12,785 nucleotides of DNA from a virus (Duplodnaviria > Heunggongvirae > Uroviricota > Caudoviricetes), in the IMG/VR virus record IMGVR_UViG_2563366819_000004; one strand, given 5' to 3'. This document shows, piece by piece, positions 1 through 12,183 of the stretch. Position 1 is the stretch's first letter. Each line of letters starts with the position of its first letter. Position numbers and translations under genes: made by a program. The notes below the pieces were generated by a model, which ran no database searches, was not told where the DNA came from, and saw nothing but the letters and a program-made list of their open reading frames with translations.

Positions 1-1074
1 TCATTTGTCGATTTCAATTTTGTCCCATTCCCGTCCACGGCGGTCCCTATACCGCGCCGCCATTGAATCTGATTTATGCCCGAGAAGACGTTGAGCAAAC
101 TTATCGCCAATCTGGTTCCGGTATAGCCTCGCTGACAGGCTACGCAGTTCATGGAATGTTGGCGGGTCTCCATCAAATGAGAGTCCAGATGCATTTCTCG
201 CCTTTGTAAAATACTTCGATACTGTTTTAGGGGAAAGCGGATCGTGATGCTTTGATGCGATTATAGTTTCACTGCCGCTGGCCTCCCTGCATTTCTGTAG
301 TGTATCAGCCAATGAGATATTGAGCGCGTCAATCGTTAGCGTTAGCGGAATGGCGAGCTTAGCCCCTGTTTTACTCTGTTCAATGTGAAGATGGTTGTCG
401 TTTATGTCTGACCATTTCATTCTACACAAATCGCCCACTCTCTGCCCTGTAACGACCGCCAAATCCATTGCCAGCCTCAGCCAGATTGGGAGAGGTTCGG
501 CTGCATGGTAAATCGCGACATACTCATTAGCCGTCAGCCTTGAGCGCCTTACTTCTGACTTTGCTGTGCGGGTCGCTGTTACTGGATTCGTTTCCACATG
601 CCCCTCGGCTATTGCCTCACGAAAAACGTCAACAAGGGTTGACCTGATTAATTTTGCGGAAGCCGCTTTACCTTCTGCTACGTAGGTGTTTAGCATTGCT
701 GCCACCTCTTTCGTTGATATGTCAGTGAGCGGTTTGTCCGGCAATTTTCTTCGAATTGCCCTGATTTTGCTGGCGTAGTCGAGTAGAGTTTTCGGTCTGA
801 TACCCCTCTCGCTGATGATTGTTTCATATCGGTCAAGCCACGTATGAAGAGTGATTGCGTCAGCGCCTTTAATCCTGTCGATCAGTGACTCACGCCTGCT
901 CTCGGATAGCAACTCAATATTGGCCTGAATGGCCTCTGAAACTGCTATCCTTCTGTCTCTGCCTAATCCGAACTCTTTACCCGTCCTTGGGTCCCTGTAG
1001 CAGTAATATCCATTGTTTCTTATATAAAGGTTAGGGGGTAAATCCCGGCGCTCATGACTTCGCCTTCTTCCCAT
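1..1074 (-). CDS. int: Tyrosine site-specific integrase, lambda Int-type (357 aa, complete)
   Basis: Translation begins MGRRRSHERRDLPPNLYIRNNGYYCYRDPRTGKEFGLGRDRR and ends RGREWDKIEIDK, which I recognise as very close to phage lambda Int. ATG at 1074..1072, stop at 3..1. Overlapped at its 5' end by xis, as in lambda. Confidence 0.95.
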   Translation of the reverse strand: MGRRRSHERRDLPPNLYIRNNGYYCYRDPRTGKEFGLGRDRRIAVSEAIQANIELLSESRRESLIDRIKGADAITLHTWLDRYETIISERGIRPKTLLDYASKIRAIRRKLPDKPLTDISTKEVAAMLNTYVAEGKAASAKLIRSTLVDVFREAIAEGHVETNPVTATRTAKSEVRRSRLTANEYVAIYHAAEPLPIWLRLAMDLAVVTGQRVGDLCRMKWSDINDNHLHIEQSKTGAKLAIPLTLTIDALNISLADTLQKCREASGSETIIASKHHDPLSPKTVSKYFTKARNASGLSFDGDPPTFHELRSLSARLYRNQIGDKFAQRLLGHKSDSMAARYRDRRGREWDKIEIDK

Positions 1075-1270
1075 TTCTGATCCTCTTCAAAAGGCTACCT
1101 GTTACTGGTCGATTTAAGTCAACCTTTACCGCTGATTCGTGGAACAGATACTCTCTTCCATCCTTAACCGGAGGAGGGAATATCCTGCACTCGCGTACCC
1201 ATCGACGAACTGTTTCAAGGCTTCTTGGGCGTCGCTGGCGTGCGTTCCACTCCTGAAGTGTCAAGTACAT
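1052..1270 (-). CDS. xis: Excisionase Xis (72 aa, complete)
   Basis: Translation MYLTLQEWNARQRRPRSLETVRRWVRECRIFPPPVKDGREYLFHESAVKVDLNRPVTG.LLKRIRNGKKAKS is essentially lambda Xis from memory. Overlaps the int start by 23 bp, the classic lambda arrangement. Confidence 0.93.
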   Translation of the reverse strand: MYLTLQEWNARQRRPRSLETVRRWVRECRIFPPPVKDGREYLFHESAVKVDLNRPVTGSLLKRIRNGKKAKS

Positions 1271-1375
1271 CGCAAAGTCTTCGCAATTACACGCAAGAAA
1301 AGCTGCATTGATGCGGCAATGGTAGGTCTGGATATCTTGAGAAATGAACAGGCCTCATCGAGTGTGAGGCTGTGG

Positions 1376-1657
1376 TTAGTCCTTGCGTAACTCGCTAATT
1401 CTTCTGTAAGTCTCTGGTGCTTTGTTTCCGTGTATCTTCATTTCAGACTTCAACAGAGCAACGAGGGAATCCCATTCGTTGAGGATGCCTTTGAATGCCG
1501 GAACGCGCTTTGCAACCTTGTCGAATGAATCTCTGATTTCTGGAATCTGCTCAACAAGTGCAACGCATCGTCGGAAATCGGCTGCGTCATGTGGAGCGCC
1601 GAAGTGATGACCATAGATATTCTTTTTCAGTCCACATGCGATTGAGGCAAGAGTTGC
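1376..1657 (-). pseudogene. 3' portion of a small leftward accessory gene split by the IS100-like insertion
   Basis: The minus-strand ORF has no ATG; it opens with TTG immediately inside the IS boundary. Removing the IS and one copy of the target duplication joins it in frame to the fragment at 3614..3681, giving a 114-aa protein MSDLAMKVLKWQSTGDVGISSATLASIACGLKKNIYGHHFGAP...RRISELRKD. Product not recognised. Confidence 0.6.
1653..1657. repeat. Target-site duplication GTTGC (left copy) of the IS100-like insertion
   Basis: GTTGC immediately precedes the IS left terminus TGT at 1658 and recurs at 3614..3618 right after the right terminus ACA. A 5-bp duplication fits the IS21 family. Confidence 0.65.
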
Positions 1658-1685
1658 TGTTACCAACGGTGCAAAACTGATCCAC
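1658..1685. repeat. IS100-like left terminal inverted repeat
   Basis: TGTTACCAACGGTGCAAAACTGATCCAC matches the reverse complement of 3586..3613 (TGTCAACAACGGGTAAAAAGTGATCCAC) at 22 of 28 positions. Confidence 0.55.
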
Positions 1686-1743
1686 CCCAGCGGTTGAAAA
1701 TTGATCCAGGGGTTAATCTGCTCCTCTGAATACAGGGGAGCTT

Positions 1744-10046: not shown

Positions 10047-10167
10047 CCTTGATGCCTCACCAGTTGGGTGGAATGGCATCGTAACCTACTGGATAAATAC
10101 TCAATAGTACCATTTCGGTATGCAATCACATCATGGTTGCATCATATCATTCTTCTGGAGCAATGAT
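10047..10167. promoter_or_regulatory. Divergent intergenic control region between mnt and the tailspike gene
   Basis: 121-bp AT-rich spacer between divergent starts. Contains short inverted repeats (ATGCAA-N11-TTGCAT at about 10120..10142; TACT-N4-AGTA at about 10099..10110). No promoter or operator is proven. Confidence 0.35.
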
Positions 10168-11892
10168 ATGTCAGATATCACCGCAAATGTTGTGGTAAGC
10201 ATGCCTTCGCAACTATTTACTATGGCTCGTTCTTTTAAAGCCGTAGCCAATGGCAAAATTCATATCGGGAAAATTGACACTGACCCGGTAAATCCTGAAA
10301 ACCAGATTCAGGTTTATGTAGAGAATGAAGACGGTTCTCACGTCCCTGTTTCGCAACCAATCATCATTAACGCTGCTGGATATCCGGTATACAACGGACA
10401 GATTGCCAAATTCGTTACCGTGCAAGGCCATTCTATGGCTGTTTATGATGCGTATGGTGCGCAGCAGTTCTATTTTCCTAATATTCTGAAATATGATCCA
10501 GACCAACTTAGACAAGATCTTTCAAATGGCGGAGATAGTTTAGGTGATAGCTTGGTAGCTGTTAATCAGCCAGTTATTGAAAGCATAAAAAGAACCCAGC
10601 ATGATAAAAACTATGAATCTATATCTTTACGTGATTTTTCTGGTTCAATTGGTGAAGACTGGACTATACCGCTACAAAATGCATTTAATTGGTTATCATC
10701 TGGACCAAATAGAACACTTGTGATACCTCATGACGGAGTATTTGGACTTACATCCGCAACTCTTACTCTTAATGGAGACTTAAGTAGAAATTCCAGAATT
10801 GTATGTGAAGGTAGTTTGAAGCATTTAAGAACAACCGGAGATATGATAACGATCTCTGGCGGAATGTACGGTGAGTTTGAATTCAATATTTATGGGAGTG
10901 GGTATAATCCAGAAAGTATCCCTGACTATCAAATGCCGGATCCAGATGGATGTCAACAGGCAATTGTCTTTGCTGGTAATAGGGCGTGCAAGCTTAAGAT
11001 AATGGCTATAGGATACCCTGGACGTGTATTAAGAACTAAACAAGTTGGGCCTGTGAAGCAAAGTTTTATCGATCTTGATATTACAACGGGCAATGATACT
11101 TGCGGACAAGCAATGTATCTTCAGGGTACTGATGCTTTTGGGTGCATTAGCTTTGCTAACACCAACTGGGATTATTATGGCAGTGTTATTGATGGAATAA
11201 CTGATTTAAGCATTGTCTATTGGGAGGCTGGCTCAAAAGGTTCTAACACACCGGAGGTTACGTTTGATAATATAAATAACTGTCATATTGGAACCATTGC
11301 AATAGGGCAGGATGGAACTAACTCTGCTTTATTAGTTAACAGTGGTAGAGCAATCACTATTCAAAAGGCTTTGCTCGGAGAGTCAACCTACGGGTTAGAA
11401 GTGATTGGAAGTGGAGTAGGGCAGCCAATGCATCAACTGACAATACATTCACTACTATGTGCTAACATAAGAACTGCTGGAGTCAGGCTTTCAAATGCGG
11501 TTGGAGTTACAATCAAAGACCATGTCTTTGACGGATGCCCTTACGATGTAATGTTTTTCAATTTGTGTCGGGATATAATTATAAAAGGCCATCATCGAAA
11601 CCCAATAATCGCATGTTTTTATGGTGTGGAATCGTCTACCATTGAAAATCTCACTTTAAATGGCAAGTTTTATACAGCCGGTAACAGTACGTTTTGTGAT
11701 TTCAGGCTTTCTGATACCATAAACGTGCTGATTGATGACTTTACAGTTGTTACACAAGGTAGCTACCTCATGCTTAAGGATGCGAACAATGGTGTTTCAG
11801 TAAGAGGTGGGAATTGGTCAGGAACTTTACTTCCTATTTCAACCGCAATTGAATTCCAGCCGCGAACCATAAAGGACGTAACAGGGTTTTAA
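10168..11892 (+). CDS. Tailspike protein (574 aa as annotated) with P22-type head-binding domain and divergent receptor-binding domain
   Basis: N-terminus [59 protein letters not shown]...[13 protein letters not shown]...LKYDPDQ is collinear with the P22 tailspike head-binding domain. The remainder is unrelated to the P22 endorhamnosidase domain and visibly AT-richer. GGAG 7 nt upstream of the ATG. Confidence 0.9.
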
Positions 11893-11907
11893 ACCAGAAA
11901 AACAAAC

Positions 11908-12159
11908 GTGGCTAAATCCTTCCCCATTGGTTCAGTTACAGGATCTAAGATTTCTTACGCTCACGGACTCTACCGTTCACCAACAGAGATTTCTGTGGTG
12001 ATACTTGACACCCCTGATGTATTAGGTGCTGCTAACTCTTCGATAATTGTGCAAAGTGTCGATAGCGTGAACATCGTTTTCAAATATGTAGGGAGTGAAA
12101 CACTAGCCAATACTCTAAACTTCAGGGTTACATTGAAAGCCGAGGACAGATCTAATTAA
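11908..12159 (+). CDS. In-frame downstream ORF (83 codons): either the displaced C-terminus of the tailspike or a small tailspike-associated protein
   Basis: Same frame as the tailspike, separated only by TAA (11890..11892) plus 5 codons. No ATG (GTG at 11908) and no Shine-Dalgarno. Beta-strand-rich composition. Followed immediately by a strong terminator. Confidence 0.4.
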   Translation: MAKSFPIGSVTGSKISYAHGLYRSPTEISVVILDTPDVLGAANSSIIVQSVDSVNIVFKYVGSETLANTLNFRVTLKAEDRSN

Positions 12160-12183
12160 AAAGGGGCTTTAGCCCCTTTTATT
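12158..12183 (+). terminator. Rho-independent terminator ending the tailspike transcription unit
   Basis: AAAAA-GGGGC-TTTA-GCCCC-TTTTATT directly after the TAA at 12157..12159; the A-run before and T-run after make it potentially bidirectional. Confidence 0.75.

Follow-up and report, generated by a model that had tools for sequence, protein, structure and literature searches.

The cryptic lambdoid prophages of Escherichia coli K-12 (DLP12, Rac, Qin, and e14) consist of an integrase-proximal end and scattered late or accessory genes, carry IS insertions and internal deletions, and have lost inducibility; some K-12 prophage remnants have documented host functions. The remnant analyzed here, from a 12,785-nt stretch of DNA (the window), is the same kind of object, although it belongs to another phage lineage and occupies another att site. 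Its integration module (int, xis, and attP) and its chromosomal site, torS/torT, are those of HK022, the P and P′ arm sequences of which are recognizable at attR and attL, respectively; however, HK022 is a siphovirus whose virion genes are lambda-like, whereas the remnant joins an HK022-type module to P22-like virion genes, and three substitutions separate its core sites from those of HK022. The virion genes of the remnant lineage follow the order of the Sf6/IME10/HK620/P22 group (coat-gp4-gp10-gp26-gp14-gp7-gp20-gp16-mnt-tailspike). Sf6 and IME10 share 93 to 95% nucleotide identity with parts of positions 3688 to 10496, and the Sf6 gene 12 protein is 84% identical to the gp20 of the remnant. 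Unlike the remnant, the members of this group are complete phages with a P22/Sf6-type (IntS-like) integrase and other att sites.

Phage Gally (OV696608; Lederbergvirus), an active prophage of E. coli LF82, likewise combines a P22-like virion and genome layout with an HK022-type int-xis-attP module; this intact and highly inducible element is integrated at torS/torT in strain LF82 (PMC9928086). Its nucleotide identity to the remnant is 96.7% over the int-xis side (positions 1 to 1657) and 95% over gp16; however, its DNA is divergent from or unrelated to that of the remnant in coat, gp4, gp7/gp20, and the tailspike receptor domain, its annotation includes no gtr operon, and it has two extra genes between gp16 and mnt. 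The prophage of E. coli S87 (NZ_CM151376.1, about 3,947,300 to 3,985,480) occupies the same torS-torT site and shares int-xis (about 97% nucleotide identity), the gp14-gp7, gp16, and tailspike alleles (92 to 95%), and an operon of gtrA, gtrB, and a DUF2142 (gtrC-like) gene (98%). It differs in having a complete gene set of approximately 38 kb, an uninterrupted 663-aa tailspike, canonical att cores where those of the remnant are substituted, and zero IS elements, and its coat-gp4 region and central gp20 are mosaic alleles other than those of the remnant.

The remnant at torS/torT

Contigs 99.9 to 100% identical to the window place the remnant between torS/attL and attR/torT, a position also found in the closed chromosome NZ_CP151026.1, with torS (914 aa) and torT intact on either side. 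On these contigs, the remnant runs on past IS200C with the gtr operon up to attR/torT and measures approximately 16 kb from torS to torT. The first-pass annotation correctly recognized a defective lambdoid/P22-like (Lederbergvirus) prophage with a whole int-xis module and a fragmentary virion module; its figure of about 12 kb for all that remains was too small, since the intact gtr operon lies outside the window.

It had also been considered that the record might be an assembly artifact, with the missing modules contiguous in the real replicon and collapsed or misjoined here. The region does contain two multicopy IS elements, and short-read contigs frequently end at IS200C; however, neither of the deletion junctions described below (3886 to 3891 and 5626/5627) touches an IS element, the chromosomal flanks torS and torT are both in place 16 kb apart, and, besides the closed chromosome, more than 15 independent assemblies contain the same junctions, among them megabase-scale contigs and metagenome assemblies of unrelated projects. 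These independent assemblies refute the artifact explanation.

Features lie on the plus strand unless stated otherwise. At the attL end, int (1 to 1074, minus strand) encodes a full-length HK022-type (lambda-family) tyrosine integrase of 357 aa, in which an arm-binding, a SAM-like, and a catalytic domain are recognized (Pfam Arm-DNA-bind_1, Phage_int_SAM_1, and Phage_integrase); it is identical to HK022 Int at 344 of 357 residues (96.4%) and keeps the context of the R-K-H-R-H-Y motif. The adjoining excisionase gene, xis (1052 to 1270, minus strand; Pfam Exc, E = 3.9e-41), is complete, and all 72 residues of its product match HK022 Xis (72/72, 100%), so the earlier description of both proteins as complete and lambda-like holds. 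Both att sites were located, attL on the torS side and attR on the torT side. The attL core reads GCACTTA AGGTGAA AAAGTTG (canonical, GCACTTT AGGTGAA TAAGTTG) and the attR overlap reads AGATGAA (canonical, AGGTGAA), with the result that the two overlaps are mismatched with each other; these three changes in 42 bp are no more than the general divergence from the reference phages. The substitutions are predicted to affect excision, and the element is probably locked in place.

Both of the IS elements that had been noted in the window are present. An IS21-family element (1658 to 3612; istA, 1744 to 2766; istB, 2763 to 3545; Pfam rve/HTH and IstB_IS21), called ISSen3-like after the PGAP annotation of a sister copy (L001), has inverted repeats at 1657 to 1685 and 3586 to 3614 with repeated internal sites and is flanked by a 6-bp target duplication (1652 to 1657 = 3613 to 3618). 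It splits a small early-left gene (HK022_32 homologue; PHROG match to phrog_1229), the 3′ part of which lies at 1376 to 1657 (minus strand) and the 5′ end at about 3619 to 3680; the alignment with HK022 and Gally is broken at 1657/3613. The second element is IS200C (98 to 99% identical to IS200C copies), of which the left 600 bp of 711 bp fall in the window (12186 to 12785; tnpA, 12327 to 12785; Pfam Y1_Tnp) and the rest continues beyond its end. It contains an STnc490 leader RNA (12194 to 12317; Rfam, 146 bits), and its boundaries in L005 versus L001 show that it separates the tailspike terminator from the gtr operon.

Deletions and lesions in the virion module

Beyond the IS21-family element, an ASCH-domain early gene (HK022_34 homologue) survives as a 3′ stub of 45 codons (3754 to 3891, minus strand; 138 nt) that forms the left edge of a large deletion. 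The stub has a BLAST match to HK022 positions 7910 to 8122 and covers phrog_625 positions 50 to 93 of 98, and in L001 it is annotated as "missing N-terminus." When the window is compared with HK022 and the coat gene of phage APC_JM3.2, the junction falls at 3886 to 3891, in a 6-bp microhomology (CGGATA) common to both parental sequences; measured on the intact S87 prophage, the deletion spans approximately 22.9 kb. On its right side, the coat (gp5) fragment (3886 to 4937) encodes residues 83 to 431 of 431 with no internal stop (Pfam P22_CoatProtein profile positions 84 to 422) and is 98.6% identical to the APC_JM3.2 coat in a global alignment; as had been claimed, the gene is truncated at its 5′ end, codons 1 to 82 being gone. 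The first-pass annotation named the middle of the coat gene as the next recognizable phage gene after xis; the coat fragment is indeed there, but the HK022_32 and ASCH remnants intervene. Every stretch of the window could be assigned to a source, and none of it derives from immunity, replication, lysis, terminase, portal, or scaffold genes; the reported absence of these modules is thereby confirmed.

Between coat and gp4, a small ORF with PE repeats (4982 to 5249) has a +1 frameshift near 5046 in a nucleotide alignment with APC_JM3.2 and is annotated as frameshifted in L001; it includes a (GAGCCA)n array (approximately 5118 to 5171) whose repeat number varies among copies. A second deletion, of 2,715 bp with a 2-bp microhomology at 5626 to 5627, is apparent against L001, which keeps the segment and whose annotation supplies its gene content: gp10 and gp26 in their entirety, together with the 3′ end of gp4 and the greater (5′) part of gp14. 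Accordingly, gp4 (tail accessory factor; 5227 to 5646; Pfam P22_Tail-4 profile positions 3 to 127 of 159) retains approximately 133 of its 166 codons and continues into 6 foreign ones, its last 33 or so codons being lost where the alignment stops at 5627, and gp14 (DUF2824) retains its last 38 or so codons (5627 to 5740), the translation of which is the C terminus of S87 gp14.

Two ejection proteins downstream are full length: a gp7-like protein (5727 to 6386; 219 aa; Pfam P22_gp7, E = 7.5e-91) that is 93% identical to S87 gp7, and a gp20-like protein (6399 to 7700; 433 aa; Pfam Inj_translocase; phrog_2534 positions 1 to 435 of 435) that tblastn aligns end to end with Sf6 gene 12 and ST160 gp20. 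The gp16-like gene (7700 to 9696) is a pseudogene, frameshifted as first reported: compared with Gally and S87 gp16, both of 1,998 nt, it has a 1-nt deletion at 8289/8290 and a stop at 8309 to 8311, the rest being open in another frame, with phrog_770 matching the C-terminal part. On the minus strand, mnt (9786 to 10046; Pfam Arc and Repressor_Mnt) encodes an Arc/Mnt-family ribbon-helix-helix repressor of 86 aa, 58% identical to Gally Mnt. The tailspike (10168 to 12159) is also a pseudogene, with a P22-type head-binding domain (Pfam Head_binding) and a low-GC receptor-binding domain that, except for weak matches in Klebsiella phages, was not found in any of 50,697 phage records. When compared codon by codon with the intact S87 tailspike, the gene shows a TCA codon changed to an in-frame TAA at 11890 to 11892, which cuts off the last 88 residues; the ORF at 11908 to 12159 is the severed C terminus, and a truncated product of 574 aa is called in every copy. 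Direct reading of the sequence identified a stem-loop and T run (12160 to 12185) at the end of the phage-derived sequence in the window; homology with L001 stops at 12185. The damage exceeds that noted in the first-pass annotation, which missed the tailspike stop, the 2.7-kb deletion, and the frameshift in the small ORF. Among the phage ORFs of the window, five (int, xis, gp7, gp20, and mnt) are still of full length.

A sister copy of the remnant, carried by E. coli 19KM1831 (NZ_CP151026.1, 124,535 to 143,531; L001) and related assemblies, is 99.7 to 99.9% identical to the window and shares its large-deletion junction, IS21-family insertion, gp16 and PE-repeat ORF frameshifts, tailspike stop, and att-core substitutions. 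In contrast to the window, it still has gp26 and frameshifted copies of gp10 and gp14, its int is interrupted by IS4, and IS200C is missing; its chromosomal flanks differ by 2.3 to 2.5% from those of the window lineage. Three derivative forms of the remnant were recognized, marked by IS4 in int (type B, with gp10 and gp14 frameshifted), by a possible gp7 frameshift (type C, with a 1-nt gp7 deletion and a stop in istB), and by the gain of IS200C. The gp7 deletion of copy L022 corresponds to window position 6155; this lesion and those in int of copies L006 and L018 could be sequencing errors.

Decay, retained genes, and persistence of the locus

We consider it about 90% probable that this element is a cryptic prophage under ordinary progressive decay, the retained genes representing the prophage ends and no selected toolkit. 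The ancestor would have been a P22-like podovirus (Lederbergvirus) of approximately 38 kb, with int-xis-attP of the HK022 type and a gtr operon for O-antigen modification, that entered the HK022 attB at torS/torT in E. coli. One illegitimate deletion of approximately 22.9 kb at the 6-bp microhomology, from the ASCH-domain early-left gene to coat codon 83, would then have stripped the recombination, immunity, replication, nin, antitermination, lysis, terminase, portal, and scaffold functions, leaving int-xis at the attL end and the segment from the coat fragment through gp16, mnt, and tailspike to gtr at the attR end. The IS21-family insertion, the gp16 and small-ORF frameshifts, the tailspike nonsense codon, and the att-core substitutions would have come later, followed in the window lineage by the 2.7-kb deletion (gp4 to gp14) and afterwards by the IS200C insertion; this sequence of events is our reconstruction. 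The element is unable to replicate, lyse, package, or build a virion.

The first-pass annotation regarded the retained set as nonrandom and as a possible sign of domestication. This explanation is unneeded because the prophage order runs from attL through int, xis, and the early genes to the late genes, coat, gp4, and onward to gp16, mnt, tailspike, gtr, and attR, and the genes nearest attL and attR survive a single internal deletion, which leaves exactly the two ends. In its explicit form, gp7, gp20, gp16, Mnt, and the tailspike would have been kept as a functional unit for superinfection exclusion, envelope remodeling, or tailocin-like activity. The set recurs in about 170 to 200 index blocks of public assemblies, and gp7, gp20, and mnt are indeed full-length ORFs; however, gp16 is frameshifted and the tailspike stop-truncated in every copy, gp4, gp10, gp26, and gp14 are lost or broken, one copy has the gp7 deletion, neither the late-gene activator nor the late promoter region survives, and no promoter-like site rises above chance level. 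Between lineages, the virion genes show 12 nonsynonymous to 2 synonymous substitutions (small counts). The five intact ORFs, a point against pure decay, are expected by chance: with three point lesions in approximately 9.2 kb of phage coding sequence, of which gp7, gp20, mnt, int, and xis make up 38%, the probability by our own arithmetic that all escape is about 0.24. Selection on these virion genes is already disfavored and, in our judgment, highly improbable, and simple decay, the other possibility first raised, is favored by the independent further lesions in sister copies, the 12:2 ratio, and the missing late promoter and late-gene activator. The virion-gene ORFs are presumably unexpressed and would be silent or irrelevant passengers.

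A second point against pure decay is that the remnant, which diverges by 0.1 to 0.25% across hosts whose flanks differ by 1 to 2.5%, has persisted and spread, which might mean that part of it is under selection. The locus might thus be partly domesticated as a host cassette, in which two end-proximal parts are useful and the virion genes ride along and decay: a phage promoter in the attL P′ arm would be the sole source of torS transcription once the prophage occupies the site, the gtr operon would modify the O antigen, and the remnant, locked in by its att-core substitutions, would be retained and moved among E. coli lineages by homologous recombination. The P′ arm stretch is kept (about 92% identical to HK022) beside intact torS and torT, the att overlaps are mismatched, and each of the three forms, like S87, has full-length gtrA, gtrB, and gtrC-like genes. 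However, both putatively useful parts lie outside the window, the 3:3 ratio of nonsynonymous to synonymous substitutions in the gtr genes is based on six changes only, the contrast between remnant and flanks is also possible through recombination that swaps the flanks, and a neutral insertion in a clonal lineage can persist without selection. This proposal, which we regard as unlikely, addresses only the persistence of the locus and agrees with progressive decay on the virion genes. Under progressive decay, any selected parts would probably lie outside the window, the candidates being the gtr operon and the P′-arm promoter of torS.

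Location, extent and parentage of the remnant

The contigs that were read, at 99.8 to 100% identity to the window, place the remnant between torS and torT. In long contigs the order is torS, attL, int and xis, continuing to the tailspike gene, IS200C, a DUF2142 (gtrC-like) gene, gtrB, gtrA, attR and torT, and in L005, a contig with long flanks, the attL core and the attR core span 15,985 bp. The remnant therefore extends over about 16 kb, not the 12 kb or so that the first-pass annotation took to be all that remains; the phage-derived portion is about 13.3 kb once both insertion sequences are subtracted. 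An exact-protein look-up returned 198 index blocks for gp7 and 173 for the coat-fragment fusion ORF. The integration site is the attB of phage HK022, at which a prophage is present in about 5% of E. coli genomes (PMC6814406).

Genes for repressor/immunity, replication, lysis, terminase, portal and scaffold functions are absent from the window, in agreement with the first-pass annotation, and from the torS-torT interval in the identical contigs; the contiguous missing modules that the annotation had named as the sign of an assembly artifact are thus not seen in these contigs. All six functions are present in two intact relatives, the complete prophage of ~38 kb that E. coli S87 carries at the same site and Gally, an active Lederbergvirus prophage between torS and torT in E. 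coli LF82. Because these modules are missing, the remnant does not qualify as a functional (inducible) temperate prophage. A satellite or helper-dependent element was also considered and was rejected, since the remnant is without replication, packaging-signal and small-terminase functions and its att cores are mismatched.

The S87 prophage begins with int, xis, early-left genes that include an ASCH-domain gene, recombination genes and c2/cro; its middle carries the replication, nin, antiterminator, lysis, terminase, portal and scaffold genes, and its right part comprises coat, gp4, gp10, gp26, gp14, gp7, gp20, gp16, tailspike and gtrCBA. The torS gene of S87 is itself annotated as frameshifted (L017:9481-12224, in the S87 record). 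The int-xis region of Gally matches window positions 1-1657 at 96.7% nucleotide identity, and both prophages have the map attL-int-xis ... coat ... tailspike-(gtr)-attR. This layout establishes that P22-like virion genes combined with an HK022-type integration module constitute a known, living phage type, and it is from this type (Lederbergvirus) that the remnant derives, at a known att site. It is a cryptic prophage of a familiar kind, comparable to the defective lambdoid prophages of E. coli K-12. The sister copy in E. coli 19KM1831 (L001) is already a string of pseudogenes in its PGAP annotation, and we found no paper on this particular remnant in the literature.

Integration module and att sites

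Two complete genes on the minus strand occupy the left end of the window: int (1-1074; 357 aa), the product of which has PF09003 (arm-binding), PF02899 and PF00589 domains, and xis (1052-1270; 72 aa), which encodes a PF07825 protein. The first-pass annotation had described both as complete and lambda-like, a description borne out by identities to HK022 Int and Xis of 344/357 (96.4%) and 72/72 (100%), respectively. From these sequence comparisons, the two proteins are assigned to the lambda family and specifically to the HK022 type, rather than to the IntS type that is usual in P22 and Sf6. Beyond xis lies a small early gene on the minus strand (1376-1657 and ~3619-3680), which is interrupted by an insertion sequence. 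HK022_33, a gene of ~170 bp that lies between the homologues of HK022_32 and the ASCH-domain gene in HK022 and Gally, is missing here (3679-3698); the alignments on either side share 20 overlapping bases, which suggests that the gene was lost, or exchanged in mosaic fashion, at a short repeat.

Both att sites, the search for which the first-pass annotation had recommended, were located just outside the window by homology to the HK022 attP arms; direct-repeat detection had failed because the cores are mutated. Their position at the torS-torT attB and their arm homology agree with HK022, and the B-O-P' layout is that of Yagil 1989 as cited in PMC6814406. The site is intergenic, and a search of the window for a possible att-associated tRNA found none. 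The empty attB (contig L014) reads GCACTTT AGGTGAA AAAGGTT, the attB-type sequence being GCACTTTAGGTGAAAAAGGTT-like, and the attP of HK022 and Gally reads ATCCTTT AGGTGAA TAAGTTG. The canonical attL (S87 and STEC346) is GCACTTT AGGTGAA TAAGTTG and the canonical attR (S87) is ATCCTTT AGGTGAA AAAGGTT. In all copies of the remnant, attL (L005:4203-4223) reads GCACTTA AGGTGAA AAAGTTG and attR (L005:20187-20207) reads ATCCTTT AGATGAA AAAGGTT. Compared with HK022, S87 and STEC346, the attL core sites thus have two substitutions, and the overlaps differ by one base (AGGTGAA in attL versus AGATGAA in attR). We take the overlap to be 7 bp from alignment with lambda and general knowledge. In lambda, recombination requires overlap identity. 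By analogy, the core changes and the overlap mismatch should impair excision, despite the presence of whole int and xis genes.

Deletions, insertion sequences and decay of the virion genes

The main deletion has its left edge within the ASCH-domain gene, of which a 3' stub of 138 nt is left (3754-3891, minus strand), and its right edge at coat codon 83. The sequence CGGATA is common to both parental sequences at the join (3886-3891), and the deleted stretch is ~22.9 kb as measured on S87. The P22-type coat fragment (3886-4937; PF11651, E = 1.5e-130, profile positions 84-422) lacks the N-terminal 82 residues and aligns with residues 83-431 of the coat protein (431 aa) of phage APC_JM3.2, with 98.6% identity and no internal stops; the 5' truncation noted previously is therefore correct.

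One illegitimate deletion accounts both for the loss of the central modules and for a retained gene set that the first-pass annotation had called non-random. The remnant that it recognized is real, but its claim of non-random retention is not supported: comparison with the intact relatives S87 and Gally, as it had advised, places the retained genes nearest the two att sites. We put at about 0.9 the probability that the genes were retained through their position when a single internal deletion occurred and have been decaying since. Under this reading, integration would have been followed by the large microhomology deletion, the IS insertions, the point lesions and a second deletion, and the genes kept would simply be those closest to attL and attR.

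Two IS elements are present, as reported earlier. The IS21-family element (1658-3612) encodes istA (HTH plus DDE rve, PF00665) and istB (IstB AAA+ ATPase, PF01695) and has inverted repeats (1657-1685 and 3586-3614), internal repeats and a 6-bp target duplication. It was considered as the cause of the large deletion and rejected, because the target duplication is intact and the element is 274 bp away from the junction. The left 600 bp of IS200C (12186-12785) follow a terminator hairpin (12160-12185); the right end of the window coincides with the stop codon of the IS200 tnpA gene, and the right-hand 111 bp lie beyond it. This element, an insertion of 711 bp when compared with L001, encodes a single Y1 (HUH) transposase (PF01797) and is 98 to 99% identical to annotated IS200C copies. 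It is accordingly assigned to the IS200/IS605 family as IS200C, an element type of about 0.7 kb with a structured left end and no inverted repeats. The sole match in an Rfam search of the window, to the Hfq-binding sRNA family STnc490 (12194-12317, 146 bits), represents the structured 5' leader of IS200C, not a gene of its own.

A second deletion, of 2715 bp (junction 5626/5627) and with only 2-bp microhomology, cut gp4 short by ~33 codons, so that about 133 are left (5227-5646), eliminated gp10 and gp26 entirely and spared only the final ~38 codons of gp14 (5627-5740). With gp10 and gp26 gone, the window does not encode a complete tail machine. Since L001 retains gp26 and a frameshifted gp10, their absence from the window is secondary. 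Between coat and gp4, a small PE-repeat ORF (4982-5249) has a +1 frameshift near 5046. Within this frameshifted ORF, a (GAGCCA)n array (5118-5171) encodes Pro-Glu repeats; its copy number is variable, L005 having two units fewer and L022, another copy, three more.

The ejection-protein genes gp7 (5727-6386), gp20 (6399-7700) and gp16 (7700-9696) and then mnt (9786-10046, minus strand) and tailspike (10168-12159), the last with the P22 head-binding domain, follow in the canonical P22-like order (PF25688, PF16928, phrog_770, PF11423/PF03869 and PF09008), and among them gp16 and tailspike are pseudogenes. Relative to the gp16 genes of Gally and S87 (both 1998 nt), one base is gone at 8289/8290, which confirms the frameshift recorded in the first-pass annotation; the reading frame ends at a stop codon at 8309-8311, and the remainder is open in a different frame. 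The tailspike gene, which had been counted among the retained genes, aligns codon for codon with the intact 663-aa tailspike of S87, except that TCA has become TAA at 11890-11892, and ORF 11908-12159 is its severed C terminus. This stop codon had been overlooked, as had the 2715-bp deletion and the PE-repeat ORF frameshift. The S87 prophage served as the intact reference because the tailspike receptor domain had no good phage match: among 50,697 phage records, only weak partial matches to Klebsiella phages were found. The receptor-binding part (10600-12159) has a GC content of ~0.39 to 0.41, compared with ~0.50 elsewhere, and among complete E. coli genomes was seen in 19KM1831 and S87 only.

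ORF listing and family scans assigned the whole length of the window. Five antisense or overlapping ORFs (4878-5297, 12345-12710 and 12169-12435 on the minus strand; 3605-3892 and 5031-5249 on the plus strand) were rejected as genes because they have no meaningful family matches and lie within known genes or IS elements.

Every copy shows the same main junction and the same IS21-family insertion, together with the frameshifts in gp16 and the PE-repeat ORF, the stop in the tailspike gene and the altered att cores; hence all of them descend from one already-dead ancestor. Three natural derivative forms date the decay steps relative to one another. Form A, the window, has a whole int gene, the 2.7-kb deletion and IS200C; form B (19KM1831, more assemblies and one metagenome contig) has IS4 in int and gp10 and gp14 frameshifted but kept, and is without IS200C; form C (GCA_000242055.1, an old assembly whose small lesions need read-level confirmation) has the 2.7-kb deletion, is without IS200C and carries, in copy L022, 6 additional bp in int (window position 333), a stop in istB (3194) and the loss of one nucleotide from gp7 (6155). 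Two further copies, L006 and L018, have a 1-nt deletion in int (window position 1034). These single-copy lesions may be real decay or may be sequencing errors, the assemblies being long-read or older ones.

Forms A and B are separated by 12 nonsynonymous and 2 synonymous changes in the virion genes and by 3 and 3 in the gtr genes; the numbers are small, but the direction of the 12:2 ratio is as expected if constraint on the virion genes has been relaxed. The first-pass annotation had left open a choice between domestication and simple decay, and it is decay that the lesions and this ratio favor. The int, xis, gp7, gp20 and mnt genes are intact. These make up 38% of ~9.2 kb of phage coding sequence, and the chance that all of them escape three point lesions is about 0.24, so their intactness needs no special explanation. 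A domesticated machine of phage origin, be it a tailocin, a GTA-like element or an exclusion system, is rejected in view of the gp16 frameshift, the tailspike stop, the deleted tail genes, the 12:2 ratio, the lesions in sister copies and the deletion of the late-gene activator and late promoter. A promoter consensus scan gave 8 promoter-like sites versus 16 expected from shuffled sequence and was uninformative on expression; counts in a terminator consensus scan were at chance level. Beyond annotation the remnant is of little importance: what appeared to be a non-random retained set becomes textbook prophage decay with its event sequence reconstructed.

The torS promoter, the gtr operon and the history of the locus

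Directly to the left of window position 1, between the attL core and the int stop codon, lie 73 bp of P' arm (L005:4218-4290). In HK022, this stretch carries the sole torS promoter active in lysogens, with the result that torS is expressed more strongly and torCAD is no longer expressed aerobically (PMC6814406). The remnant keeps the stretch at about 92% identity to HK022 and is flanked by intact torS and torT genes; by analogy, the dead prophage may still control the regulation of TMAO respiration. The gtr operon, for O-antigen modification, is part of the same prophage and lies between IS200C and attR, beyond the window (the DUF2142/gtrC-like gene, gtrB and gtrA; L005:17204-19839, minus strand). 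All three genes have kept their full length, with products of 440, 314 and 117 aa, in every remnant form and in S87.

Forms A and B diverge by 0.1 to 0.25% within the remnant versus 2.3 to 2.5% in the chromosomal flanks (L005:1-3854 and 20133-20660 compared with L001), with switch points ~340 bp within torS and ~60 bp within the attR P arm. Form C has a like contrast, with flank divergence of ~1% (L018:1548-5662 compared with L022). The degraded element therefore does not share the history of its flanks: either homologous recombination carried the dead prophage from one lineage to another, or the flanking DNA was replaced.

It can be envisioned that the P' arm promoter, by then the only one of torS, and the gtr genes kept the remnant under selection as a host cassette, locked in because the substituted and mismatched att sites block its removal by Int and Xis and spread between E. 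coli lineages by homologous recombination, with the virion ORFs as passengers. The differing histories would agree with selection acting on the locus but do not prove it, and the three att changes in 42 bp are not above the general divergence from the reference phages; we regard this scenario as unlikely and prefer positional retention followed by decay. The remnant nonetheless offers a clean natural example with which to ask whether torS and TMAO respiration are still rewired through the P' arm promoter, as they are by live HK022, when the prophage at this site is dead and, as a second use, whether in P22-like prophages it is the conversion (gtr) genes that survive the death of the virus. Both of these host-relevant candidates, the P' arm promoter and the gtr operon, sit outside the window.
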